From a virus (lineage: Duplodnaviria; Caudoviricetes): 64,000 nucleotides of DNA. Under the pieces are notes generated by a model. The model was given only the letters and a program-made list of their open reading frames with translations, made no database searches and was not told the origin of the DNA. The stretch lies in the IMG/VR virus record IMGVR_UViG_3300025715_000009, positions 128,001 through 192,000 of that record, one strand, 5' to 3'. Positions 16,309 through 49,821 of the stretch are shown in pieces (the stretch's first letter is position 1; each line of letters begins with the position of its first letter). The translations under genes and the position numbers were made by a program.

Positions 16309-16727
16309 ACAAACTTTCCATCTTTTATTATATATAAATCACTATTAAAATGATCAATGTATATATTTTCTATTTTATAGTTTTTTACACTTACAACTGT
16401 TTGGAACATTTCTGTCTCTTCATCAACTTCACCACTTAATCCTACATGAAATTGAAAATTACCATTTACAATATCCATTAAATTATCTGTATCCCAATAG
16501 TCATAATGCCAATTTTTCTTATTATAATTATCACCATAAAGTATAAAATTATGACCGCGTATTGTTTTTTCTTTCATGTATACTTTATTCATTATTTGTT
16601 GCATTGAATAGTGTATAGGAAAATAAGTTAACCAATCAGGGTCTAAATCTTGATAACCTTTTAAATTACCAGATAATTCGCCAGAGAAAATCAAATCTAA
16701 TATGATTTTTATATATTTATATCTCAT
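16299..16727 (-). CDS. Hypothetical protein
   Basis: ORF track. Confidence 0.6.
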   Translation of the reverse strand: MRYKYIKIILDLIFSGELSGNLKGYQDLDPDWLTYFPIHYSMQQIMNKVYMKEKTIRGHNFILYGDNYNKKNWHYDYWDTDNLMDIVNGNFQFHVGLSGEVDEETEMFQTVVSVKNYKIENIYIDHFNSDLYIIKDGKFVWK

Positions 16728-17010
16728 ATAGATCCATGTCCTTGGGATGACGAGAGATATAATTTTTTATATAACCTTTCATCCATGTCTCTCGTCTTTG
16801 TTTGTGAAAATCTTTTTCGGCTTTTTCTGCAAATTTTTCAACTTCATCATTTGTAGTTGTGTGAACAACATCAGACGAAAAATGTATATCTTGTATTTCT
16901 TTGGGTGTTTTCTTTGCTCCCCAAATTTTCTTTAACATTTCTTGTGGTATATTCTTAAAATATATGCTATCTCTTTCACTTGTTCTTGTGAATCCAGGAT
17001 TTGTTGTCAT
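16717..17010 (-). CDS. Hypothetical protein
   Basis: ORF track. Confidence 0.65.
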   Translation of the reverse strand: MTTNPGFTRTSERDSIYFKNIPQEMLKKIWGAKKTPKEIQDIHFSSDVVHTTTNDEVEKFAEKAEKDFHKQRRETWMKGYIKNYISRHPKDMDLYEI

Positions 17011-27624: not shown

Positions 27625-28392
27625 TCATATTTTATCCTTTTTAAATTTATTATTGACTTCTAACATATTATTTAAAATCTCTGGTAAGTATCCTGCTTTT
27701 TTACTTGCTTCTATAATAGCTGGTATATCTTTATTAAAACAATGTGAATCCCAATATGGAGCCTGTTCATACACATAAGTATTGGCAGGAGAGACACGAG
27801 AATCACAGATAAATAGTTCTCTTAATTCTATATAATCTATATCAAAAATTTTTGCTATTCTATAAAATTCATTTGCAAAACTAACTTGATTTGCTAGCCA
27901 ACAATTCTCCATGTATTTTACTAATTCAGCTGTTTTTGCATCAGTTTGGTTGATACGAAAATAAGCACTATGTATTAACATATATAATTGAGCTACTTGG
28001 TTTGTTAAATATTTATCACCACCTAAAGTTATAAAGTTCATTGGAGGAATGTCATTAGAGTGAGGCGTTATACCATAATATTCAGGCGAAAAGACAATAT
28101 CACAATTATATTTTTTTATTAAGTTATCAGTTGTTCCTGGTGGTATTGTTGATTTAATTATAAAAATTTTTACTCTATCTTTAAACTCTTGAACAACTTT
28201 ATCTACAATAGAAGTATCACAAGATCCATCAGATAATGACTCAGTAGGAACTGAAATAAATGCCAAATCCCAATTTTTGTCTTTATCTTGTAGTTGATAT
28301 AAAGGATCATGAATATCAGCCCATGGAAATTCTTTATATAAATGTTTTCCAACCATTCCATATCCTATAATTAATATTGTAGGTTTTTGCAT
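27625..28392 (-). CDS. UDP-glucose/GDP-mannose dehydrogenase family protein (no C-terminal domain)
   Basis: GYGMVG, VPT, IKSTIPPGT, SPEY, AELVKYMEN, HCFNKD. Confidence 0.88.
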   Translation of the reverse strand: MQKPTILIIGYGMVGKHLYKEFPWADIHDPLYQLQDKDKNWDLAFISVPTESLSDGSCDTSIVDKVVQEFKDRVKIFIIKSTIPPGTTDNLIKKYNCDIVFSPEYYGITPHSNDIPPMNFITLGGDKYLTNQVAQLYMLIHSAYFRINQTDAKTAELVKYMENCWLANQVSFANEFYRIAKIFDIDYIELRELFICDSRVSPANTYVYEQAPYWDSHCFNKDIPAIIEASKKAGYLPEILNNMLEVNNKFKKDKI

Positions 28393-28401
28393 ATTAACTC
28401 C

Positions 28402-29183
28402 TCAAAATAATGTAAGTGAATAATTAGGATCATAATTATCTAATATTTTTTGCCACGTTGCTGTTATTTCTGGATCATTTTTAGATTTTTCTAAATCTAA
28501 ATTACTATGTAATTCCCTAACTTGTCTATAACAATATTTACAAAAAATATCACCTTGCTTTTTCATTAATTCATCAAATGGTAGAAATCGTCTCTCTCCT
28601 ACATCTAAGTGCAAAAGATGAGCAATATATACTGCTCTAGTACAAAGAAATATGCCAAATGGAGTAATTCCAATTCCACATTCTCTTGGCACCCAACATT
28701 TATCAATAGCAAAATTATATGGTTCTACTAATTTATATTTTTCAATTGCATCTGGAAAATCCATAATAGATTGAAAAATAGGAAAATGTTCTTCTACGTT
28801 TTCTGATTTTTCTTTAGTTGAAAAAACAGTAATATTTATTCCGTTGTTTTTTAAATCTTCTATTTTTTTAATTACATCTTTAGTAAATTGACTTCTTCCA
28901 TTAGATCTTAAAAAAATTAATGGTTTTTTTGTAAAACCATTAGATAATAATTTTATTATGTCTATTATTTGTGGGTGAAGTGTCGGTTCTCCACCCATAA
29001 TGTGGATTGAATCTCTTTTTCTATAATGTGGTTTTAAAATTTCAATATATCTTTCAATTTGATCTAAAGACATATATATTGATCTGTGTTTATATTTTGA
29101 CCCACATAAACGATTACACCACTCACAACTTAAATTACACTCATAAGAATATCAAGCTGATAAAGCACCCTTAACCCCCTCAT
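28402..29183 (-). pseudogene. Radical SAM protein with an apparent 1-nt frameshift near 29146-29150
   Basis: CNLSCEWC lies upstream of the ORF-track ATG (29073) with no in-frame start; MRGLRVLYQLDI from ATG 29183 is in another frame; GGEPTLHP and SNG motifs are present. Confidence 0.7.
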
Positions 29184-36200: not shown

Positions 36201-36638
36201 CCAGTGAATTGAAACTGTTCCTGCGTTTGATGTTCCTAATTCTGTTTCTGTATAATAACGACTATCATGGTGGTGGAGTGTTGTTCCATTACCAGAAGTC
36301 AATTCATTTAATTCTGATAAAGTTATATCAGTGTTGGTATCTGCAGCTAAAGTTTGAGTAATTGTTGTATTGTGTGGGTTATCTCTATCAAAACGTGATG
36401 TTATAGAAAGAGCAGCAATTGCATCAGCAATGCTCATATCTCCACCATTATCTCCTATATCCGTAGTTGATAGAATTAAATTACCTGCTGTAATTGCAGC
36501 AGTTAAATCTGTCGTAAGATAAGCATTTATACCATTACTATCAATTACTAATGATTGATTGTTTGGGAGGGAAATACCAAGATCAATAACATTTACGAGT
36601 GATCCACTGGTGTTTTTCAAATAATAAGTCATGCTCAA
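33210..36638 (-). CDS. Large fibre/tailspike protein with duplicated pectin-lyase-like beta-helix entry motifs
   Basis: Two VFVAKNG...NPYLTVQAA...V.PG.Y.E units; DLG N-module and ICWRE C-domain. Confidence 0.8.
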   Translation of the reverse strand: MSMTYYLKNTSGSLVNVIDLGISLPNNQSLVIDSNGINAYLTTDLTAAITAGNLILSTTDIGDNGGDMSIADAIAALSITSRFDRDNPHNTTITQTLAADTNTDITLSELNELTSGNGTTLHHHDSRYYTETELGTSNAGTVSIHWDNIIHAPQFGALEWQSPALGNLVGKGAYSAIPATAEEGQFYLSTDNDHLYRYTSGVWTDQGSPTTGTRVIFKDGTGSDDRIYEWDGDSWDPDPAPQDNWAVVVSDDGDGKSAQYVYDSSGLPPDWIKIADVDWGSHDALGDRDSANSHPATAISFNNTTSGLAATTVQAAIDEIATEQGVDLNNIVFVAKNGIDINPNVTLGTIANPYLTVQAAIDSITGASSTNRYVVYIMPGDYNENVVLNKPFVYLASPQKNAARIISSSGTTLSVGSTTEKSNGVYNLSLVSTSSMTTDAALTITGNNPTIFNVDILATSGARTAFINGAFSQTFRHVNLRGGTFRIDAGVVEFYDSKVVEAVTDITSGTLRVHNGDFSHNGGDAISQSAGTVYLVSAALSSGTGAKDYNQSGGTVYWGWVEYNQTKVTFNGTKTLLFPANDLYYNSTGDVNITGDDIDEVISQIDNIITNILDGLSDHEGRTDNPHTVTFTQASLADPNTDITAAEAETLTNASNADLLHTHAASNISYNNSGTSLSSTTVQDAITELSNEVGTEIQNVVYVAKNGTDTNPNVTLGTLDNPYLTVQAALNSITDASSTKYYVVFVMPGTYLEDLTLKPWIGIMGLSKETTKVRTETGDHIANFTSGGRWFAKNIGFGGTQDMIFTHPATSSGGTSIWFDNCQIGTLTANMLGGGVDYVQLRNDVSITGATAIHAANLTAYNSVFMGGLTIDDTGVEHLDSYGSASSNTVKDCMGGNLLLKGASQNVWVEFYNNYSWDTLTSDGNADVHVDAQSAPDVRASMVSVNGGRFHLTDNAFAVGYDDTLTSLNANNVQDAIQALNSKITQFDMPSGTSFPTSPAPSAGDIFYRTDLNMTFQYDSSRSKWLSMSQMFLDWGSNVADGKYLNIHGAVATQTGYLMPYNGTIISVTAKSASGNQSKLFELRRNNDRVTPLDSFTLTSGSYSAINKNIDFDAGDYLQAFVPASGVPAKDAVVMVVICWRE

Positions 36639-37357
36639 TTCTCCTCATTTTTTTTAGAAAAATAATGTTTTATAGCTAAACTTATTTTTCTTTTTGTTTC
36701 TTCAGAAAGTTTTTTATTTTTATTTACTAAACTTAATTTTTTTTTATGTTCTTCTGTAAGTTTTTTCCCACAATGAGCATTGCTTATTTTTCTTTTTGTT
36801 TCTTGAGATATTTTTGTTTTTTCACAAGAAAATCTTTTTTTCTGTGAGATACTCATTTTTCTTTTAGTTTCTAAAGAATGTTGTTTTCCTTTTCTATTAC
36901 TTAATTTATTTTTTTTTGATTCACTAATTTTATTTTTAGTTTCATTTGATAAACTTTTTCCAGTTTTAGATTTACTTATTTTTTCTCTCCATTCTTTTGA
37001 TTTATTTAATGCTTGTAATCTTATTTTATTTCTAGTTTCTTCATTACAACGTTGTCCATCACCACCCAACGTTTTATTATAACCAAATTTTGAAATATAG
37101 GATTTGTATTTTCTAATATATTCAATTTCAATTTCATTTAAATTAATTTCATTTAATTCATTTATAGTATTAATTGCTAGCAGTATTTCAAATTTAAAAT
37201 TATTTATACCATATTTATTTATTGAATTAAATAAATGTTTATTTCCTCTACCTTTTTTATGTTCACTCCATCGTTTTTTCATGGAAATATAACTTTTGCC
37301 TATATAAATTTTATTATTTATTAAATTTGTTATTTTATATACACCAATATCTGGCAT
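36635..37357 (-). mobile_element. GIY-YIG homing endonuclease with NUMOD3 repeats, free-standing
   Basis: GVYKITN...IYIGKS, RWSEH, GYNKTLGG, repeated SxETKxKIS. Confidence 0.92.
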
Positions 37358-38486: not shown

Positions 38487-39607
38487 TATTTCCTCCAAGC
38501 AATAGTAACATTTACTCTTGGATCATTGATTGGAGCTCCTGTTGCTACACAATAAACCTGTATAACATCACCAGCAGAAAAATCTATATTTAATGTATCA
38601 TTATTATATTTTCCTGTTGTAAGAGAAAATGTTGCAAGATCTGTTAAAACTCCATTCTTACGAATTGCAAAACCTTTACTTTGATCACCTGCTCCACCAA
38701 CTGCTGATACTCCAACGATTGTTCCATTTTTAAGAACTGAATAGCCAGAATTTAAATCACTATGGAAACCAGTTGATAAATAATTAGCATCACCTTTTCT
38801 TGCTTGGAAAGAAACAGATGTTTGATTAATACTTAACCACTTGGATCTTGTGCTATCATAGGCATATAACACTCCATCTATATTTACAATTTGACCTGCT
38901 GCCACACCAACTGATGGAGTATAAGCCACAGGTGTAATTTGTAATGGTGCATAATCATTAGATGCATTAAATGTAACTGGTCCATTATCTATTGCAATTG
39001 ATGATCCACCATTATATGCAGCATCTAATGTTAATCCAGGGATAGTAGAACCAGAAATACCAACTGCTCCAATATAACGATATACTCTAACCCATAGTGG
39101 TTGAGACCATCCAAGATTTGATGCAGTATACCCAGCTCCAAGAACAATAAACCCCATCTTATAAGATGGGACCCAAGCACCTTGAGTTGTAGTAATTTCT
39201 GTACCAGGAGCTGTACCACTTCCATTATCTTGGAAAAGTTTCATGGCATAGCCCTTTCCAAAAATTTGTGGAATAAGCCAATCACCTTTTATAACAGATG
39301 ATTCATTTCCTGGTGTAGAAAAAGCAGCCCAAGCTCTATCATTTGTTCCTGTTATTTTTGTTAATTTAAGATCAATTTTTTCAATCATAGTAGGATTAGC
39401 TGCAACAGCAGCATCTGCTTCGGCTGGAGTATTAGCAACTGGAACTTGTTCTACATATAAATCTTGATTTAAAAGAAATGGTCTCCAACCATATTTCTCT
39501 TCATAATATGCAAGACCACTTGAATCTGATGTATTACTTAAACCTTGAACACCAAATACCATTTTAATTGCTAAATTAAGTTTTTCTTGATCAGTTAAAT
39601 TTGCCAT
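38486..39607 (-). CDS. Virion structural protein (module Y plus AWR C-domain)
   Basis: N-terminal half similar to 52850 and 54977; C-domain ends IAWRK. Confidence 0.75.
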   Translation of the reverse strand: MANLTDQEKLNLAIKMVFGVQGLSNTSDSSGLAYYEEKYGWRPFLLNQDLYVEQVPVANTPAEADAAVAANPTMIEKIDLKLTKITGTNDRAWAAFSTPGNESSVIKGDWLIPQIFGKGYAMKLFQDNGSGTAPGTEITTTQGAWVPSYKMGFIVLGAGYTASNLGWSQPLWVRVYRYIGAVGISGSTIPGLTLDAAYNGGSSIAIDNGPVTFNASNDYAPLQITPVAYTPSVGVAAGQIVNIDGVLYAYDSTRSKWLSINQTSVSFQARKGDANYLSTGFHSDLNSGYSVLKNGTIVGVSAVGGAGDQSKGFAIRKNGVLTDLATFSLTTGKYNNDTLNIDFSAGDVIQVYCVATGAPINDPRVNVTIAWRK

Positions 39608-40428
39608 AAATAATTCTCCAATAATTTTGGATTTTTTTCTATATTAATAAGATCGCTTGTCAAAATAAGAACCAATCCAATTTCGTTTTTTGCTAAATCA
39701 ATTTTATCTTTTTGTAACTCATAAAAATAATTTGCTTTTGTATCTATATATTTATTTTCTATAATAAAATCTGGAGCATATCTTTCACCAGAAGATAGAA
39801 TTATTTGTTTATGATATAATTCCCATTTATAATTTAAATTATCAAGAATTTTTGCTAATCTTAATTCATATGTTCCTTGACATTTATGAATTTTACCGGT
39901 TTTATCAACAAATTCTATCCATTTACTTTTGCCACCCTTATTAATAAATTCTTTATATTTATTTACATCTTGATGGGCTTTTTTTAAACCAATACTTATT
40001 TTGTTTTTATATTCTTCTGTAAAGATTTTATTTTTTAACTTTAATTTTACATCCTCTCTTTGTGAATTATGTTCAACATTATATTTAGCCATTATACTTT
40101 TTTTCATTTTTTCTTTATCTTTAAGTATATAATCTATACCATATCTACTTAAATTAGTTTGTTTTATTTTTTCTTTAACAGAATTTAATTGAAAACAATT
40201 TATAACTCCATATTTTTTTAAAAAAGAACATTTTTTACAATAACAACCATTGTTACTCATAATACTTTTTTTATTAGTAATAATATCACATTCACAATCA
40301 AGACATTTTGTTTGAACTCTATCACGTTGTTTAATTTCTATTCCATTTAAAAATAAAGCTTTAAATTTTACGCCATTATAAATAGAATCTTTAATTTCTA
40401 TTTTTGGGCTAAATGGTATAGAAATCAT
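39595..40428 (-). mobile_element. Homing-endonuclease-like gene (Zn ribbon, KYG repeats, PD-(D/E)xK)
   Basis: CLDC/CKKC, KYGVINCFQ, QGTYE...YAPDF...YIDTK; same architecture as 3457..4407. Confidence 0.75.
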
Positions 40429-42045: not shown

Positions 42046-44112
42046 CTACCAATCTATTACTGACATATAACTAATGCGTGGTGCTGTGTTACCAGGATAT
42101 AAAACCTTAACAAGAATCATATATCCTGAATTGACTGTATAATTTGTTCCTAATGTAAATTGGAAATCACTTGTTGTTTGTATATCTCTATTTACCCAAC
42201 ACCCATCATCATCTGCTCCACTAAATGAAGAGAAGTTATAATCTCTTGTTAGGTCTAACCATCCAGTTTGAGATGGGGCTTTAATCCATACACGAACATC
42301 ACGATTATATAATTGTGTTTTTGTTATTCCTGTCATTCTTAATGTACCTGATGCATGTGATGAAGATGTATCTCTAAAAGCTCTTAAATAAACTTTATTT
42401 GTTTCAGATGCTATAAGAGAATAATCAGGGTTTCCACTTGGCATATAAGTAGAGAAATTCAATGTTGGGAAATAAAGTTCATCCATATAGAGTTGTAATC
42501 CAGCTCCATCATCATAAGTATCAAGAGATTGAGTACTATCCCATTGACCCGTTATTGTAGATGGAATTGAATTATATGCTAAATTTTGAAGACGATATTG
42601 TTCATCTCTGAAATGTTCAACCAAATCTGTAGATGCATTCCCATAAGACCAAATTAATATATTTTGTGATGCAGATTGAACTGCTGTATATGAACCATAT
42701 GGATCACGAGGTGTTGCAGTAATTCTTGCATTACTTGCCATTTGATTTGCTGCTTGACCTAAAGACCAATTTGATACTGACATTATTTCACCAATATCAG
42801 GGGGTGAAGAAACGCCAGATACAGCAACATTGTTATATGTTATTTCTGTTGATGACATTCCAGGCCACCCTGAAAATACTAAAGGAGCTCCTGATGAATG
42901 ATATACATTATCAAAAGCATCGCTTACAGTAACATCTACATCCCAAGTTGATCCTGTATCATAATATTTAACACCAGATAGATATTTAAATACTGGCGTA
43001 TCTTCTGTAATAATTGGTGTTGAAACAGATGGATTAGAGCCTGTATCTGTATCATAGAAAATATGAACTGATGCAGAAGTTTGTATCCCACCTTCTTGAG
43101 TTGATAATCCTTCATGTTTAATATAAATTTCACTATAACCTTGACGTAATAAAGCAGGATCAGTTATTTCTGCCCTTACTTGGAAACGTTGATAAAATTT
43201 AAAACCATTATGAGCTTGAACTGAAAGGACTTGGAAAGTACCTCCAGTAAATGTTACTACACCATTAGATATAACACTTCCTGTACCTTGAACATCATAT
43301 TCAGTTAAAATTTGAGATCCATCACGATTTGCAGGATTAAAATTTGCTCCTAAATCTATTGCAGCAATTACTGATCCATTGATATATAACTTGACTACAC
43401 CACGATCTCCATAATTAGAATAATTACCACCAGGGGTAGTAATTGTAAAAGTTGAATCTCTTGTTATGTAATTTACAACATCACCTGCAGGATCATCTGA
43501 TTTGTAATTTATATTAGATTGTGATAATCCACCAGTTACAAATGTAGTTCCAGCTACTGTAAGAGTTTGCCCATTCATAGAAAGAGGCGGATCTGGTGGA
43601 CCAATATAAGCCACATTTTTACCATTTTCAGTATCAATATATACATCATCTTCTGCTTGTACGAAAACAAGTTTTTCTATATTTTCTCCATATGGATCAT
43701 TATCATATTCTGTAACTACTAATGTTGATGTAGCTTGAGACCATTCAGCTGCTGTAGAATCCCAACGATAGAGAATTCCATTTTCACGAACAAGACGAAT
43801 GTCTCCATTTTCATTACCATTAATTGGAAGATTAGCAAAAGTAGCAACATTTGGTTTCCATTGATTTTTTAATGTCAATCTTTCAATAGCTATTGCTTTT
43901 GTAAAATCTCCAGTTGTATTACCGATATCAGTTGTAGAGAGAATCAATCCAGTAGCAGGGTTATCTGATAAATTAGTGACCATATCATCAGACAAATAAC
44001 CGTCAATATCATTAACATCAATTGTTATTGATTGACCATCTGCTATGACAATACCAAGATCATCAATGCTAACTTCTGCTCCTGTGCTGTTTTTAAGATA
44101 GTATTCAGCCAT
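42046..44112 (-). CDS. Virion structural protein (DLG N-module; C-terminal region paralogous to 54977..60025)
   Basis: Shared LRQGY, SGV.YY, RDP.G, STDL.E.FRDE.YRL, PxQTGWL, T.NSGYMI motifs. Confidence 0.8.
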   Translation of the reverse strand: MAEYYLKNSTGAEVSIDDLGIVIADGQSITIDVNDIDGYLSDDMVTNLSDNPATGLILSTTDIGNTTGDFTKAIAIERLTLKNQWKPNVATFANLPINGNENGDIRLVRENGILYRWDSTAAEWSQATSTLVVTEYDNDPYGENIEKLVFVQAEDDVYIDTENGKNVAYIGPPDPPLSMNGQTLTVAGTTFVTGGLSQSNINYKSDDPAGDVVNYITRDSTFTITTPGGNYSNYGDRGVVKLYINGSVIAAIDLGANFNPANRDGSQILTEYDVQGTGSVISNGVVTFTGGTFQVLSVQAHNGFKFYQRFQVRAEITDPALLRQGYSEIYIKHEGLSTQEGGIQTSASVHIFYDTDTGSNPSVSTPIITEDTPVFKYLSGVKYYDTGSTWDVDVTVSDAFDNVYHSSGAPLVFSGWPGMSSTEITYNNVAVSGVSSPPDIGEIMSVSNWSLGQAANQMASNARITATPRDPYGSYTAVQSASQNILIWSYGNASTDLVEHFRDEQYRLQNLAYNSIPSTITGQWDSTQSLDTYDDGAGLQLYMDELYFPTLNFSTYMPSGNPDYSLIASETNKVYLRAFRDTSSSHASGTLRMTGITKTQLYNRDVRVWIKAPSQTGWLDLTRDYNFSSFSGADDDGCWVNRDIQTTSDFQFTLGTNYTVNSGYMILVKVLYPGNTAPRISYMSVIDW

Positions 44113-44191
44113 TATTTACATACTCCTATTATAAGGGAACTTGTAATTATCTTTATGTTTATTGAAGAAAAAGATAGTTTTTAGCAAGAAA

Positions 44192-44611
44192 TTATGACAG
44201 ATTTAATTTTGATATGATTTGTTTAAAATCTTGAAATTCAAAAATTATTTTTAATGTTTTATGTAAATTTTTTTTATAAGATACTTCCAAATTACCATAT
44301 TTTAATATTAAAATAAATATATCAACTAAATCTTTTTCTGAAAAATTTTCAACATTTTCCTGAAATGTCTTGTATGGTGTTTCTCTAAATGGTGGATCAA
44401 AATATTTTTGAGTGTTTATTCTTAAATTGGCTTTATTTTTAATAAGATATTTAGCTATTTCCGCCCCATCTTTATGTTTGCCAGTTAGACAATAAAACAA
44501 TAAAGTTCTACCATAACTATCTCTTGTATTAATATCAATATGATCAGAGATAATTAAACTTAAAACATCTTGTAGTTGACCCTTAGCCAACATTCTGTTT
44601 ATTTCAACCAT
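44192..44611 (-). CDS. Ankyrin-repeat protein with type-B-like signature (HKTLKIIF)
   Basis: DINTRDSYGRTLLFY...EIAKYLIKNKAN. Confidence 0.75.
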   Translation of the reverse strand: MVEINRMLAKGQLQDVLSLIISDHIDINTRDSYGRTLLFYCLTGKHKDGAEIAKYLIKNKANLRINTQKYFDPPFRETPYKTFQENVENFSEKDLVDIFILILKYGNLEVSYKKNLHKTLKIIFEFQDFKQIISKLNLS

Positions 44612-44614
44612 GAT

Positions 44615-44836
44615 TTATAATTCACCAATTTTTGCTGTAAAGATATATTTAATAAATTTTCTCAGATGTTGCTTTTTAGCTGGAATATAATCAAATACTC
44701 TTATTCTATCATAAGATAAATAATCTATTTCTAATTTATTAATATCTTTGTCATATAATATAATTATACTAATAGGTTTAACATGTAAAAAGAGGCACTC
44801 AAAAGTATATTTAGTTCTTTTAGCGTAATTCCACAT
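44615..44836 (-). CDS. Small protein, tandem paralogue of 44843, type-B signature
   Basis: MWNY...ECLFL.VKPISII.LYD...AKKQHLRKFIKYIFTA. Confidence 0.75.
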   Translation of the reverse strand: MWNYAKRTKYTFECLFLHVKPISIIILYDKDINKLEIDYLSYDRIRVFDYIPAKKQHLRKFIKYIFTAKIGEL

Positions 44837-44842
44837 AATATT

Positions 44843-45064
44843 TTATATCTCACCAATTTCTGCTGTAAAGATATATTTAATGAATTTTCTTAAATGTTGT
44901 TTTTTAGCAGAAGTAAATTCTCTTATTACTACTAAATCATATTTTTTATGTCGTATTTCGAGTATATTAAATTTTTCATCATATAATAATATTATACTAA
45001 TTGGTTTAACGTTTAAAAAGAGACATTCGTATTTATATTTATTTCCTGGTGTATAATTCCACAT
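44843..45064 (-). CDS. Small protein, tandem paralogue of 44615 (start revised to MWNY)
   Basis: The ORF-track extension overlaps a terminator; AAGATAAT lies 3 nt before ATG 45064. Confidence 0.75.
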   Translation of the reverse strand: MWNYTPGNKYKYECLFLNVKPISIILLYDEKFNILEIRHKKYDLVVIREFTSAKKQHLRKFIKYIFTAEIGEI

Positions 45065-45083
45065 AATATTATCTTGCAAAAAA

Positions 45084-45106
45084 AAAGAGAGCAAGATGCT
45101 CTCTTT
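45084..45106 (-). terminator. Intrinsic terminator
   Basis: aaagagagca-aga-tgctctcttt plus T-tract; same stem as 50637-50661. Confidence 0.85.
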
Positions 45107-45124
45107 AAAATAAAACAACAATTA

Positions 45125-45394
45125 TTATACTTTATTGCCTTGTAATAATATCTTGGCAGCTATATTTGGTTCAGGATCAATTAAAATTCCACCTTTTAAC
45201 CAATCACAAAAATCATCCATTTTCATCTCTTGTTGGTTTACATATTGTCCATCTTTGCTAACACGACAAACAACATAAAGATCATTTTCATCTCCATCTT
45301 TAGGAGCGTATTTTGTTACATCGATAACACGGATGACATCTGCTCCATCAAAAACAACTGGAGGCATTGTAACTTGAAACATTCTTCCAATCAT
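45125..45394 (-). CDS. Hypothetical protein, type-A signature (IAAKILL)
   Basis: ORF track; GAGG RBS. Confidence 0.7.
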   Translation of the reverse strand: MIGRMFQVTMPPVVFDGADVIRVIDVTKYAPKDGDENDLYVVCRVSKDGQYVNQQEMKMDDFCDWLKGGILIDPEPNIAAKILLQGNKV

Positions 45395-45396
45395 AT

Positions 45397-45699
45397 TTAC
45401 CTCTTCATTTGTAATCTAAATTTTGCTTCATCGCTTATATTATCAAATTTTACTAAATAAATTCTATTCTTTTTTTTACTATCTATTAAAAATCCTTGAA
45501 GTGATATTTGTCCAATGAATTGTAAGTTTATATCATAATTATCTATGAGAAAAAATAATGTATCTTGTATCATTCCAACATCTAAAATATGATAATATCT
45601 ACTAAAAGAAGAAGTCATAGTATCAAATGATAATGAATCATATAAAATATCATTTGGGCGTATATCTTCTACTGATTTTATTTCAATTAACTCAGACAT
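45397..45699 (-). CDS. Hypothetical protein (ends EAKFRLQMKR)
   Basis: ORF track. Confidence 0.65.
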   Translation of the reverse strand: MSELIEIKSVEDIRPNDILYDSLSFDTMTSSFSRYYHILDVGMIQDTLFFLIDNYDINLQFIGQISLQGFLIDSKKKNRIYLVKFDNISDEAKFRLQMKR

Positions 45700-47455
45700 T
45701 TGGATATTTTTTATAAAAATCTGACTCTACATCCTTGGCCCATTCAAAACGAGCTTGTACTGATGGAGTATAAAGGCGCTTGATATCTACATTATTATCC
45801 TTACACCAACTAATACCAATCCTCGGATCAGAATAATTCAGTTTAGATGTACCAAGAGCAACGCCCTTGGTTTTTTCTTTCATATCAATTTTAGATTGAA
45901 GGTCATTAATTCTTTCTTCGAGCTTATTTAGCTTTTTAGTAAGAGCTTCCTCTTTCTTTTTATATGTTTCTTTAGCTCTCCTTATACTATCTTTTTTTCT
46001 ATCACCAGTATACTTCTCAGCAAAGGAGATACGCTTATCTCTTTCTTGTTTGAGAAGATCAAGCTCTTGTTTGAGAGATGCCTTAATATTTTTAAATTCA
46101 TTTTTATATGTCTTAAGCTTATCCTTCATGTTCTGCAGAGAGCGTTCATATGCTTCAGAAACAGCAGATTGGTGATTAAGCTTAAGAGCAACTTCTAAAT
46201 TGGCATTAACATAATACTCAAGTTTTTTCTTCTCAGAAAGAGAAGAATTGATTTTTTGAGCTTGTAATTCCTTGGCTAGAAGAACAGAGCCGGTAGCTGT
46301 TCTAAATTGTTTCGCAGTGAGACCAGGAAGTACCATACCCAAGAATTCATTGACATCAGAACTTGTAATTGAATCAAAAACTTGTTCACTTTTTCCTTTA
46401 CCATTAATAAACTCCTCTATATTACGAATTGCATTAATATGCAAATTCTCTACACGATTATGGTAGCGAATGCTATCTTTGCCAAGAAAATCAAAAACAA
46501 CTGCTGTCCCATCAACTTGAATATGCTCTACTCTCAGAGTAGTAGCACCCACGGTATCAGCTTCGTCTTCATCTTTTTCATCTCCTACACGAATACTCAT
46601 TTTGGCAATGAGCTCGCAGACAGTTGCAATTTGACGAGTAGAACGATCACGAGATGCAAGTTTCTTTTCAATAAATGAATTTACTTTATCAAAGTTATTT
46701 GCCAGCTCTATTGCCTTGGCAAATTTCTTTTCAGCTGATTTGTGAGATACAATAGAAGTAGCAGAAAAGAGGATTGGTTTAAATTTGCCAGTAAGAGGAC
46801 AATACCACCCAGCAGTAAAAAGACTATTTTGATTCTCTTCTACCCTCTTCCAAGAATGACCTTCAGGAGGAGAAGGAGGGTTAAGATTGAGAGAGTGGTT
46901 AATTATAACATCTTCAGGGGCGATTGCTCTTTTCCATGAACCACGAAGAGGATGATTACCTCTCCCAAGGAAAAGGCCAGCAGGTTCAACCACATAATTA
47001 CCAAGAGGAACTTTTTGACCATCAAGTTCAGCAAAACCATGAATAGCTTTTAGCTCTTCTCTCTTCCTCTTCTCTTCTTCTTTTACCTCTTTCCCAATCT
47101 GCTTTTTTTCATCTCTTTGAGCAATATAAATTCGTCGTAGTTTAGTAAAATCCCAGTCTTCAGGAAACTTAGATTTCTTTATCTCTTCATAATCAAGGTA
47201 GTTGTTAAGAGTAGAATTAGCAAGACCATCAGAAAATGTTTTGATAAAGTCTTTAAAAAAATTCTTTTGAAAAGTTTTGTCTTTTACATATGGTGTTTCA
47301 AATTTAGCAACCCAAGCCCATGCCATTTCTTCTTGTTTGGAAGTGAAAACAAATTCTTTATCAAACAGCTTAAAACAGGCACCCTTAAACTGATAAGGTT
47401 TAGGGAATACAGGGCCATTATGTTTAAGTGTTTTCCATTTTTCTGCCATATTCAT
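45692..47455 (-). CDS. DNA topoisomerase IB, long eukaryote/Thaumarchaeota type
   Basis: KWKTLKHNGPVFP, EPAGLFLGRGNHP, IRVGDEKD, FDFLGKDSIRY, GLTAKQFRT, LNHQ, coiled-coil linker, GTSKLNYSDPRI (catalytic Tyr). Confidence 0.96.
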   Translation of the reverse strand: MNMAEKWKTLKHNGPVFPKPYQFKGACFKLFDKEFVFTSKQEEMAWAWVAKFETPYVKDKTFQKNFFKDFIKTFSDGLANSTLNNYLDYEEIKKSKFPEDWDFTKLRRIYIAQRDEKKQIGKEVKEEEKRKREELKAIHGFAELDGQKVPLGNYVVEPAGLFLGRGNHPLRGSWKRAIAPEDVIINHSLNLNPPSPPEGHSWKRVEENQNSLFTAGWYCPLTGKFKPILFSATSIVSHKSAEKKFAKAIELANNFDKVNSFIEKKLASRDRSTRQIATVCELIAKMSIRVGDEKDEDEADTVGATTLRVEHIQVDGTAVVFDFLGKDSIRYHNRVENLHINAIRNIEEFINGKGKSEQVFDSITSSDVNEFLGMVLPGLTAKQFRTATGSVLLAKELQAQKINSSLSEKKKLEYYVNANLEVALKLNHQSAVSEAYERSLQNMKDKLKTYKNEFKNIKASLKQELDLLKQERDKRISFAEKYTGDRKKDSIRRAKETYKKKEEALTKKLNKLEERINDLQSKIDMKEKTKGVALGTSKLNYSDPRIGISWCKDNNVDIKRLYTPSVQARFEWAKDVESDFYKKYPNV

Positions 47456-47470
47456 ATTATAATCCTTTTA

Positions 47471-48019
47471 TTAATTCTCTAAATTAAGTAATAGTTTGGC
47501 TGCTCTTGCTTGCAAACGATCAAAATCATCAATGAATAAAAATATATCATAACTCCAATGGCCATAACTCCCACTACCAGACCCTGTGTTTAATGGTATA
47601 GGATATATATTATTTTTATAACTAGGAAGATATTCTCCTTTACTTGTATAAGTTTTTCCACTTATCCTGCCTCTATATCCAGGATAACCAAATGGGAGTT
47701 CAGGTTTATTATGCCAGTTTGTTGGTTTTCCTACTGGAGCATGATGACTATTAGACACCTCTGGATTAAATGTGACATCAAGAGATATATCATCAATATG
47801 GTCATCATACATTTCTTTAAGAAAATCATTTATCACTTCAAGATAGTTATCTAAATCAAAGTTTTTATAAAATTTTGCAACTGCATTTGCATAATTATTT
47901 TTTCTAAATTCTTCTAAAGCAGCTTCTTTTCTACAAATATCTTCATGCTCAAAAGCTTTTTTTATATTAGAGAATTTCTTTTTACAGTACTCACATTGAT
48001 AATGCTCAACTATAATCAT
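47471..48019 (-). CDS. C2H2-like Zn-finger protein, type-A signature (RAAKLLL)
   Basis: YQCEYCKKKF...HEDIC. Confidence 0.7.
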   Translation of the reverse strand: MIIVEHYQCEYCKKKFSNIKKAFEHEDICRKEAALEEFRKNNYANAVAKFYKNFDLDNYLEVINDFLKEMYDDHIDDISLDVTFNPEVSNSHHAPVGKPTNWHNKPELPFGYPGYRGRISGKTYTSKGEYLPSYKNNIYPIPLNTGSGSGSYGHWSYDIFLFIDDFDRLQARAAKLLLNLEN

Positions 48020-48020
48020 C

Positions 48021-48293
48021 TTAATGCTCCAATAAATATTTAGCCATTATTACATCAAATTCATCTTTTGTTATTACTTTTATAGCTGTTTTTAATAATC
48101 TATTTATCCCAGCCAAGTTATGAACAATATCACCCTCTGTTAAACCATAACTTGAAAAATAATAAAATTTAACTTTATATTCATAAGTTTTATCTGTCTT
48201 TCTTCTTGAGTATAAAAAATAATATTCATCGTCATCATCTTTTACATTATGTCTTTTACAAACAAATACTTGACCAACTTTATGCACCTTCAT
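48021..48293 (-). CDS. Hypothetical protein, type-A signature (IMAKYLL)
   Basis: ORF track; AAGGAG RBS. Confidence 0.7.
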   Translation of the reverse strand: MKVHKVGQVFVCKRHNVKDDDDEYYFLYSRRKTDKTYEYKVKFYYFSSYGLTEGDIVHNLAGINRLLKTAIKVITKDEFDVIMAKYLLEH

Positions 48294-48639
48294 TTAATTG
48301 CTCCTTGGCAATAACATCCCACCCTATTTTAACTATTGATCCAACATAAATTTTATGATCTAAAACTCTTTTTGGCACCCATTTAATCAACTCATCTGGG
48401 TCTTTCATATTACTAAAACTCCAAGTATAATACTTGGTGTCTGTTTTGCCTTTTTCACAAAATAATCTTATTTTATAAATAAATTTTTTATTAAATTTTC
48501 TTTTATCTACTATTTCCATATACTTTAAAGAATTATATGGAAAAAATTGGGTTGTTCTTCCCAATCCATCTTTCGAGACATCACTATCAAACCCATAACT
48601 TTTGGGACAAGTAAAAACATCACCAACTTCGAACATCAA
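48280..48639 (-). CDS. Hypothetical protein, type-A signature (VIAKEQL)
   Basis: ORF track. Confidence 0.7.
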   Translation of the reverse strand: MMFEVGDVFTCPKSYGFDSDVSKDGLGRTTQFFPYNSLKYMEIVDKRKFNKKFIYKIRLFCEKGKTDTKYYTWSFSNMKDPDELIKWVPKRVLDHKIYVGSIVKIGWDVIAKEQLNEGA

Positions 48640-48829
48640 AACTCCAATTTTCGCATATACTACAAGAAGGATCTATATCATCAATATTTATTTGATTAGC
48701 ATCACAATATATATAACCTTTACCTTTAATCAAATAATAACAATTAATACATAGTTTAACATCTTGATTATTTAATAATTCCTTGGCCAAAAAATTGACT
48801 GGCCATTGTTGGGGAACTACTCTTCTCAA
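48620..48829 (-). CDS. Cys-rich small protein with internal FLAKELL
   Basis: CINC...C...CSIC. Confidence 0.55.
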   Translation of the reverse strand: MRRVVPQQWPVNFLAKELLNNQDVKLCINCYYLIKGKGYIYCDANQINIDDIDPSCSICENWSFDVRSW

Positions 48830-49014
48830 ACGTTTTCTACCCCAGTAATCTTAATTCCATATTCATCTTTTTCCCAAGTGAATTGGAATTTTTTCCTCTT
48901 ATCCACCCAATCTTCAAGAGAGTCAAGATGTCCATCATCAGTAATGAGCATATTATACTCTTTACAAAGATCAGCAAATTTTTCTAAAAATTCATGCTGG
49001 AATCTATTCATCTC
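48826..49014 (-). CDS. Hypothetical protein (probable start near EMNRFQ)
   Basis: ORF track; AAGGAG upstream of MNRFQ. Confidence 0.55.
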   Translation of the reverse strand, partial: EMNRFQHEFLEKFADLCKEYNMLITDDGHLDSLEDWVDKRKKFQFTWEKDEYGIKITGVENV

Positions 49015-49201
49015 TTCTCTCCTTGATAAATTTATTGATATCAATTTCTTGACCATTAAAATAAAAATGATCACCAGAAAATGGACGCAAAATAGCTTTG
49101 ATTAGTTGAATAATATAAGTTAATATTGTGGATAAAATTATTATTCCACCTAAAAATATCCAAAAACCATTAAATAATAATAGTTGTAATATCTCAATCA
49201 T
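49004..49201 (-). CDS. Small membrane protein
   Basis: Hydrophobic N-terminal helix; ATGA overlap. Confidence 0.6.
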   Translation of the reverse strand: MIEILQLLLFNGFWIFLGGIIILSTILTYIIQLIKAILRPFSGDHFYFNGQEIDINKFIKERRDE

Positions 49202-49821
49202 TTAAATAATTCTCCCTTAGAATTATACCAGAAAACAAAATCAAGAGCAAAAACAGGAATATTAATATCATGGGCAAAATCAATCATTTTACTTTCAATT
49301 TCTAAATATGCTTTTTTATTCATATGCCTAGGAACTTCAGGGATGACTTTGTTAGCTACAAGATTTCTAAGAATATGGCGATCAAGAATACAAATTTCAT
49401 CACCAAAACCAACATTTCTAAGAAAATGACTTGCTTCTTTCATGCCCAATCCATTAATAGTATCTGCAAGCCAATTTCTTGTTTCTACTACTCCGATCTC
49501 TGCAATTTTATTTTCAACTATATTTTTAATATTGCTATATTGATTAATTGCTTGAGCAATATACTTGGCTTTGTTTTTATTAAATCTTACACCAGCTGCA
49601 CTTAATTCTTGCTGAATTAGATATTGATCTGGTATATTTAAAAGATTTGACTTAGTAAGATATTGAACTGCTTTCCACCCACACTTAGCATTTGTTTGTG
49701 GAGTGCAAAGACAAAACACAAGTTCTGAAAATACTTCTTGTCCACCTAATTTCCAAATTGTTTTAAATGTTAGGTATCGTTGATCAATCTCTGGTTTAAT
49801 TTGTTTGTAGATCTGCAACAT
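49198..49821 (-). CDS. ogg: 8-oxoguanine DNA glycosylase/AP lyase (Ogg2, Thermotoga/archaeal type)
   Basis: ELVFCLCTPQ, GVRF.KNKA.YI, HhH GLGMKEASHFLRNVG (catalytic Lys), ILDRH (catalytic Asp), C-terminal ..FK. Confidence 0.9.
   Translation of the reverse strand: MLQIYKQIKPEIDQRYLTFKTIWKLGGQEVFSELVFCLCTPQTNAKCGWKAVQYLTKSNLLNIPDQYLIQQELSAAGVRFNKNKAKYIAQAINQYSNIKNIVENKIAEIGVVETRNWLADTINGLGMKEASHFLRNVGFGDEICILDRHILRNLVANKVIPEVPRHMNKKAYLEIESKMIDFAHDINIPVFALDFVFWYNSKGELFK

Follow-up and report, generated by a model that had tools for sequence, protein, structure and literature searches.

The present analysis concerns a stretch of viral DNA of 64,000 nucleotides (hereafter the window), corresponding to bases 128001-192000 of the IMG/VR record IMGVR_UViG_3300025715_000009, and a gene on its minus strand that encodes a protein of 587 amino acids. 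This protein is a long-form topoisomerase IB (TopIB), with three domains, the catalytic pentad and a bilobed clamp fold with a coiled-coil linker. It is likely to be a functional enzyme serving as the own swivelase of a huge tailed bacteriophage, and to be a member of a phage-specific clan of long TopIB rather than a recent capture. The gene and the parts of its product are located in the window as follows.

45692-47455, minus strand: long-form topoisomerase IB gene, 587 amino acids (P0001), with an ATG start, identified by Pfam and PDB sequence matches.
46772-47440, minus strand: cap or DNA-binding region, Pfam Topoisom_I_N, residues 6-228, including R165 in the motif FLGRGNHP (E-value 6e-54).
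46079-46744, minus strand: catalytic core, Pfam Topoisom_I, residues 238-459, with R289, K326, D327, R385 and H428 (E-value 1.5e-62).
45872-46156, minus strand: Lys/Glu-rich antiparallel coiled-coil linker, helices 434-479 and 485-528, from an AlphaFold2 model with a predicted local distance difference test score (pLDDT) of about 87-95 in this region.
45716-45919, minus strand: C-terminal domain (Pfam Topo_C_assoc), spanning residues 513-580; it contains N540 and the catalytic Y541, the latter encoded at 45833-45835 (E-value 2e-24).

The three Pfam domains occur in the order of the long form, with bit scores (183 for Topoisom_I_N, 211 for Topoisom_I and 85 for Topo_C_assoc) far over the curated gathering cut-offs. 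Together with the open reading frame (ORF), they confirm the preliminary description of this DNA, which had recognised a long TopIB of 587 residues from a set of motifs, all of which were located in the protein: KWKTLKHNGPVFP at residues 6-18, FLGRGNHP at 162-169, FDFLGKDSIRY at 321-331 and GTSKLNYSDPRI at 535-546. The R-K-R-H-Y set, described there as apparently intact, is indeed complete, the pentad being R289, K326, R385, H428 and Y541 by alignment to R488, K532, R590, H632 and Y723 of the human enzyme, and it is invariant in all the groups of a 103-sequence alignment. Equivalents of the human camptothecin-contact residues, which had also been proposed, were found by the same human alignment at R165 (human R364), D327 (human D533) and N540 (human N722). 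Only 4-6 residues precede the conserved Trp at the N-terminus, and the protein carries no tag, fusion or extra domain.

Searches against the PDB sequences identified the archaeal CsTOP1 (6z01) as the closest solved structure by sequence (E-value 2e-106); human Top1 chains match across the phage residues 6-581 (E-value about 1e-89). The short TopIB of Deinococcus radiodurans (346 amino acids) and of variola (314 amino acids) match residues of about 250-410 only, with E-values of 1e-7 to 1e-9. The AlphaFold2 model, for which an alignment of 25 clade members served as the input, has a pLDDT of 90.2 and a predicted template modelling (TM) score of 0.81. In a Foldseek search it superposes over its full length on the human Top1-DNA complexes (TM 0.82/0.85, E-value 2e-45), with TM values of about 0.3 to the poxviral and bacterial short TopIB and with tyrosine recombinases in the tail of the match list. 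Assignment to the short poxvirus or bacterial class is ruled out by the length of 587 residues with a cap and a linker, the short forms being alignable to the catalytic domain only. The short enzymes, of roughly 310-350 residues, share the catalytic chemistry and the fold of the catalytic domain with the phage long form but lack the cap and the linker, and their small N-terminal domain is a different one.

Comparison with the other long enzymes reveals a common core with distinct periphery. Human TOP1 (PDB 1K4T, 1A36, 1RRJ) has the same three-domain core, pentad, drug-contact residues and long coiled-coil linker; however, its identity to the phage enzyme is about 33%, the phage linker is approximately 22 residues longer (a spacing of 112 against 90 in a vertebrate) and the two belong to separate clans. 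A charged N-terminal extension of about 200 residues (median 237) is present in the eukaryotic TopIB, whereas the phage enzyme has 4-6 residues there. The absence of this extension, as well as the pentad, is shared with CsTOP1 from the Thaumarchaeal/Aigarchaeal Caldiarchaeum subterraneum (PDB 6Z01), a long TopIB of the prokaryotic world that relaxes both supercoil signs (PMC4824112, PMC8748870), but the archaeal linker is short and the phage enzyme lies outside the archaeal clan. Long TopIB of the nucleocytoplasmic large DNA viruses (NCLDV), such as those of L043 (1.26 Mb), L065 (617 kb) and many giant-virus metagenome-assembled genomes (MAGs), have the same domains and pentad but a short linker and eukaryotic hosts, and they group with the eukaryotes (100/99) at 30-36% identity to the query.

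Phylogenetic analysis was performed with proteins of the phage clan, archaeal genes named by GenBank, NCLDV genes from IMG/VR, ten named eukaryotes (insects, turtle, Dictyostelium, Rhizamoeba, chytrid, two red algae, glaucophyte and jakobid) and unlabelled representatives drawn from an exhaustive HMMER search of 1.84 billion proteins. The careful tree, comprising 75 rows and 578 columns, was inferred by maximum likelihood under LG+C20+F+G4 with posterior mean site frequencies (PMSF) and is unrooted. Four clans were obtained: Archaea (100/100), Eukaryotes with NCLDV (100/99), a trio of L002, L010 and P0063 (100/100) and the clan of the query (100/97), whose 27 rows lie outside both the Archaea and the Eukaryotes with NCLDV. 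Forcing the phage clan with the core Nitrososphaerota costs 139 log-likelihood units, with a p-value of 2e-46 in the approximately unbiased (AU) test. The clan was retained in a FastTree of 212 rows, where it has 42 rows, a support of 97 and no labelled cellular or NCLDV row within it. Every clan member with a context that can be judged is located on a contig of a huge phage or a T4-like phage, of up to 732 kb. These trees lend good support to the placement of the query in a phage-specific clan of long TopIB that is nested neither in the Archaea nor in the Eukaryotes with NCLDV. The preliminary label of a Thaumarchaeota-type enzyme was thus misleading, as the query is excluded from the archaeal clan and has a spacing of 112 residues between the catalytic His and Tyr against the archaeal median of 68. 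Of the two origins offered there, an unrecognised phage clade is borne out by the trees, and recent inter-domain transfer is not supported, given the AU test, synteny and composition.

The trio forms a separate clan of long TopIB on tailed-virus contigs (L002:5998-7662 and L010:4980-6731, from IMG/VR records of 131 kb and 189 kb, and P0063). The L010 record carries Terminase_6N, and three proteins, one of them a UvsW-like helicase, are common to the L002 and L010 loci and the genome of the window. Two further IMG/VR records of 122 kb and 156 kb, one of them classed as a provirus (L048:4983-6518 and L067), encode TopIB that fall in the archaeal clan beside the Aenigmatarchaeota (100/99); they may be viruses or proviruses of DPANN archaea or misclassified cellular contigs. 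A 577-residue protein of L048 is shared with the genome of the window at 36% identity. Among the NCLDV-labelled sequences, L054, L077 and L079 (IMG/VR, 277-393 kb) encode long TopIB of 720-802 residues, which are sister to all the other NCLDV and eukaryote sequences on a stem branch of about 1.0. A search for the NCLDV capsid in five IMG/VR records gave no match, and none in its controls either, so that this negative carries no information.

Homologues of the query were searched for in a database of 5.8 billion proteins, yielding about 60 clusters at 44-97% identity, all of 504-588 residues and with the same three domains. Archaeal proteins (Nitrososphaerota, Aenigmatarchaeota) appear only below 40% identity and any cellular sequence at 39% or less, the best database matches beyond the phage clan being Nitrososphaerota at 35-39%; many giant-virus MAGs in IMG/VR encode long TopIB at 30-36% identity. 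The contigs bearing the homologues reach 732 kb, 480 kb, 288 kb and 275 kb. The two largest contain same-strand runs of ORFs of 80-100 residues belonging to no known family, together with FliM/FliN, GGDEF, DnaJ and RtcB, and by their gene content look like huge phages of bacteria; OmpA and NAD-dependent ligase are also found on the contigs of the relatives. One clan member, P0058, sits in a T4-like module with the gp44 clamp loader, RNase H, UvsY, UvsW, TopIB, NAD-ligase and RecA, and another, P0144, has RecA on one side and an SLT lysin on the other. Collinearity with the window extends to 12 of 25 ORFs in the IMG/VR record L005, and the 480-kb relative (L004) and L085 share with it a 688-residue neighbour of TopIB or an Ogg glycosylase. 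L085:3001-4712 (CAZLSE010000038.1) is a 16.5-kb contig of a Gammaproteobacteria-labelled MAG, in which a TopIB 54% identical to the query is read in two overlapping frames, with a likely frameshift. This sole match in a 'bacterial' genome is almost certainly a piece of a phage genome that was binned wrongly with a bacterial MAG, because its neighbours are shared with the phage window. No close homologue was detected in other deposited genomes among the INPHARED GenBank phages by protein tblastn or by megablast with 12 kb.

The length of the linker was compared between the groups as the residue spacing between the catalytic His and Tyr in the 103-sequence alignment. The query (112), the phage clan (median 110.5) and the trio (113) are comparable to the eukaryotes (median 110.5, a vertebrate 90), with medians of 68 in the archaeal clan and 70 in the NCLDV and a spacing of 65-86 in the basal phage-clan members P0058, P0059 and P0065. 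Most members of the phage clan are therefore predicted to possess a coiled-coil linker of eukaryote length or more, modelled by AlphaFold2 in the query as a pair of antiparallel helices of about 45 residues each. A long linker has been regarded as a trait of eukaryotes and some Asgard archaea (PMC4824112, PMC8748870), with reported sizes of 53 residues in the archaeal and 76 in the human enzyme (PMC4824112). Linker and C-terminal domain, and not the contact residues alone, govern camptothecin sensitivity (PMC4824112, PMC8748870): CsTOP1 is camptothecin-resistant despite its conserved contact residues (PMC4824112, PMC8748870), and grafting of the human linker and C-terminus onto it confers sensitivity (PMC8748870). 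Since CsTOP1 keeps the same residues and is nevertheless resistant, the drug sensitivity of the phage TopIB is not deducible from R165, D327 and N540, and the natural long linker predicted for it makes camptothecin sensitivity a testable question.

The source record has a length of 388,268 bp, a G+C content (GC) of 29.7% and a CheckV completeness of 98%, and 212 of the 233 large ORFs of the genome lie on one strand. It encodes the large terminase Terminase_6N and two SLT peptidoglycan transglycosylase domains, SLT having matched only the bacterial ones among the control genomes; NAD-dependent ligase and Amidase_2 gave no match in the genome. The window itself contains tail and baseplate-like proteins (PHROGs), a tRNA nucleotidyltransferase (CCA-adding) of phage type whose head is of bacterial class II and which also has an HD domain, an MnmA-like tRNA thiolase and a STAS-domain protein. 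By this gene content the source is judged to be a huge tailed phage (Caudoviricetes) of a bacterium, in agreement with the bacterial or phage type earlier ascribed to the flanking genes from the sequence, for which the tail PHROGs, the tRNA nucleotidyltransferase, Terminase_6N and the SLT domains now speak. The metagenome runs holding the stretch come from anaerobic digester, activated sludge and sediment. Size and GC also suggested a Jug (jumbo gut) phage, a group of 360-402 kb from animal and human gut with DNA topoisomerase IV among its core genes (PMC12880540); this identity was rejected on account of the habitat and of the absence of topoisomerase IV (PF00521, PF00204).

A chimeric assembly, raised as a concern in the preliminary description, is excluded for the TopIB gene, as both of its junctions are bridged by independent assemblies from at least three other studies. 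A contig of 3,607 bp (X3) spans 45205-48811 with 4 mismatches, one of 8,105 bp from a 2025 study (X7) spans 43720-49500 at about 97% identity, and contigs of a further set (X4) cross each junction. The GC (0.354) and the GC at third codon positions (0.241) of the gene are near the 90th percentile of the ORFs of the genome and its codon usage is in the range of the genome; its composition is ameliorated and native to the genome.

Domains of the type IIA (PF00521, PF00204) and type IA (PF01131) topoisomerases were not found in the genome by searches each of which matched 12-14 of the control genomes, and PF00521 (GyrA/ParC) was not found in five related, incomplete records. Because no other topoisomerase is detectable in a genome that is about 98% complete, TopIB is likely to be the swivelase of the phage. 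The usual phage-encoded answer to the same problem is the T4-type topoisomerase II (gp39/gp52/gp60), which has an unrelated fold, depends on ATP and can decatenate DNA; nothing homologous to it is detectable in the phage genome, and a relative of the TopIB (P0058) occupies a T4-like replication module.

By analogy with the family, the cap and catalytic lobes would clamp duplex DNA, and Tyr541, aided by R289, K326, R385 and H428, would nick one strand and become joined to it by a 3'-phosphotyrosyl link. This strand would then swivel, damped by the long basic coiled-coil linker, and be resealed, so that positive and negative supercoils would be relaxed without ATP or Mg. We infer from these features an active enzyme, which may serve replication, recombination and the strongly unidirectional transcription of a 388-kb AT-rich genome and may render the phage independent of the gyrase, topo I and topo IV of its host. 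The gene would have been inherited vertically in the huge-phage lineage, and the clan also occurs in T4-like replication modules. A long TopIB can work in bacteria, as human topo IB is reported to function in Escherichia coli, where it complements topoisomerase defects (bioRxiv 10.1101/2021.07.10.451908).

The immediate surroundings of the gene include the following elements.

47463-47467, minus strand: AAGGA Shine-Dalgarno-like motif, 7 nucleotides 5' of the TopIB ATG, read from the sequence.
47471-48019, minus strand: upstream ORF of 182 amino acids, ending 15 nucleotides before the TopIB ATG, read from the sequence.
45125-45699, minus strand: two small co-oriented ORFs from the ORF list, of 100 amino acids (45397-45699) and 89 amino acids (45125-45394).
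45084-45106, minus strand: intrinsic-terminator-like hairpin with a 10-bp stem and a T-run, from a consensus scan.

The start of the 100-residue ORF overlaps the TopIB stop (ATGTCTGA), and the 89-residue ORF is kept downstream of TopIB in the record L005 at 74% identity. TopIB and the small ORFs are thus predicted to form a compact phage transcription unit, which is probably closed by the hairpin at 45084-45106; the terminator scan found 5 sites against 1.9 expected. A scan for the sigma-70 promoter consensus gave 40 sites against 42.5 expected, with no excess. Most of the TopIB gene is matched at 100% identity by contigs from one metatranscriptome library, where carry-over of DNA is possible and transcription is not deducible.

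Several other neighbours were recorded. An Ogg-HhH 8-oxoguanine DNA glycosylase is encoded at 49198-49821 on the minus strand (E-value 2.5e-56), about 1.7 kb upstream of TopIB, and lies beside TopIB in L005 (60%) and L085 (43%), which suggests that the two may constitute a small DNA-maintenance cluster. The 688-residue protein at 42046-44112 (minus strand) has no Pfam family and matches only PHROG 8578, of unknown function; its conservation near TopIB in L005 (75%) and in the 480-kb relative L004 (55%) marks it as a lineage-conserved neighbour. A DUF7487 protein lies at 39595-40428 (minus strand), and DUF7487 at L004:11701-12807 and 16312-16758 directly flank the TopIB of L004. Further away, a free-standing homing endonuclease with GIY-YIG and NUMOD3 (36635-37357, minus strand) is located just downstream of the gene for a 1142-residue tail-like protein. 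An ORF resembling UDP-glucose/GDP-mannose dehydrogenase (27625-28392, minus strand) is matched only by positions 73-135 of the N-terminal domain and by the central domain, and may be a truncated or split gene; the ORF at 28402-29073 is adjacent to it.

Among the other explanations of the gene, its recent acquisition by horizontal transfer, whether from archaea (Thaumarchaeota or others), from eukaryotes or from giant viruses, would fit the archaeal CsTOP1 being the best match among solved structures and the Nitrososphaerota being the next best beyond the phage clan. It is rendered very improbable by the position of the clan outside the Archaea and the Eukaryotes with NCLDV, by the outcome of the AU test against the core Nitrososphaerota, by a cellular identity of at most 39% against 44-97% inside the clan and by the ameliorated composition of a gene that is syntenic across related phages. 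It is harder still to credit that the gene does not come from a bacteriophage at all and that the contig is instead chimeric, cellular, or derived from a virus of archaea or a giant virus of eukaryotes. The record is derived from a metagenome and has no terminal repeats, and archaea do occur in anaerobic digesters; however, the junctions are bridged in the assemblies of the other studies, the genome combines a CheckV completeness of 98% with Terminase_6N, tail PHROGs, two SLT domains, a bacterial-type class II CCA-adding enzyme with HD, STAS and MnmA, and the relatives carry FliM/FliN, GGDEF, OmpA and NAD-dependent ligase.

Two alternatives concern the role of the protein. The main rival is that it is carried in the capsid and enters the cell together with the DNA, where it would relieve supercoiling of the incoming genome or allow early transcription instead of acting in replication, much as the vaccinia TopIB is encapsidated (cited in PMC4824112). 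Tail and structural genes do lie on either side of TopIB in the window, at some distance, but closest to it are small non-structural ORFs and a DNA glycosylase, its product is a free-standing protein, neither tagged nor fused, whose sequence opens directly with the conserved cap motif, and TopIB belongs to a replication-recombination module in the T4-like relative; delivery with the virion is thus considered unlikely. A TopIB fold re-purposed for site-specific concatemer resolution or recombination, or for counter-defence, could be imagined from the catalytic fold that TopIB and tyrosine recombinases have in common, the unusual length of the phage linker and the predicted co-transcription with small ORFs of unknown function. 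The conservation of the full cap, of both lips regions and of the pentad, the absence of extra domains and of evidence for recombination-site repeats, and the occurrence of TopIB among replication genes in the relatives make such a change of function very improbable.

Some observations weigh against the interpretation of the gene as the phage's own swivelase from a phage-specific clan. The surroundings of TopIB in the window consist of small ORFs of no known function, the Ogg glycosylase and tail-like genes, with no obvious replication module, and a role in replication or transcription is one that we infer from knowledge of the family and from the context in relatives. The absence of other topoisomerases rests on Pfam models, by which a very divergent phage-specific enzyme could be missed, and the record is linear without a terminal repeat, so that it may fall slightly short of the whole genome. 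In the phylogeny, the careful tree is unrooted and gives no resolved branching order for the four clans; short TopIB as an outgroup offers about 200 alignable residues at about 20% identity, and the inter-clan branches are very short. In the FastTree the clan also takes in the six most divergent representatives, which are on long branches, and the context of one of them, P0188, is of uncertain origin. P0188 (L172:8001-9653, NCBI GCA_028748545.1, a 131-kb contig), which is in the clan in the fast tree only, has LRR_5 proteins, a Macro domain and an SNF2 helicase as neighbours on mixed strands, and may derive from a phage, a giant virus or a cell.

Long TopIB has been placed in eukaryotes and some archaea and the short form in bacteria and viruses (PMC4824112; PMC8748870), the 2016 paper in Nucleic Acids Research confining the long form among prokaryotes to the Thaumarchaeota. 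Only short TopIB was listed for phages in a survey of jumbo phages, with phiRSL1, Lu11 and PaBG as examples (PMC7824862). No description of a long-form TopIB in bacteriophages was found in the full-text literature on jumbo phages and topoisomerases, subscription-only papers being outside the scope, and the query, analysed with eukaryotic, archaeal and NCLDV sequences as the preliminary description had proposed, falls in a clan of its own that corresponds to no published phage clade found. The enzyme family and its mechanism are known, as are the long TopIB of NCLDV and archaea; the distinct phage clan, the linker of eukaryote length and the setting appear to be new.

A wider proposal, which is tentative and rather doubtful at present, is that long TopIB is an old part of tailed-phage replication modules, with the phage clan and the L002/L010/P0063 trio as deep as the archaeal and the eukaryote and NCLDV lineages, and that Caudoviricetes are a fourth reservoir of the enzyme and possibly the source of eukaryotic TOP1. 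If this were true, the long regulatory linker would have arisen in phages or been shared with them.

The identification of this gene adds viruses of Bacteria to the known distribution of long TopIB and provides, in the phage clan, a new deep lineage by which the TOP1 family can be dated and rooted, which bears on whether the origin of eukaryotic TOP1 is archaeal, viral or older. A mesophilic, bacterially expressible and extension-free enzyme with a natural long linker may also be of practical use as a model for the control of strand rotation and of camptothecin trapping by the linker. The finding is relevant to the management of supercoiling by giant phages, some of which, it suggests, may have exchanged the ATP-dependent type II enzyme for an ATP-free swivelase as their only topoisomerase, a view that gives testable predictions on decatenation and on the dependence of such phages on their hosts.

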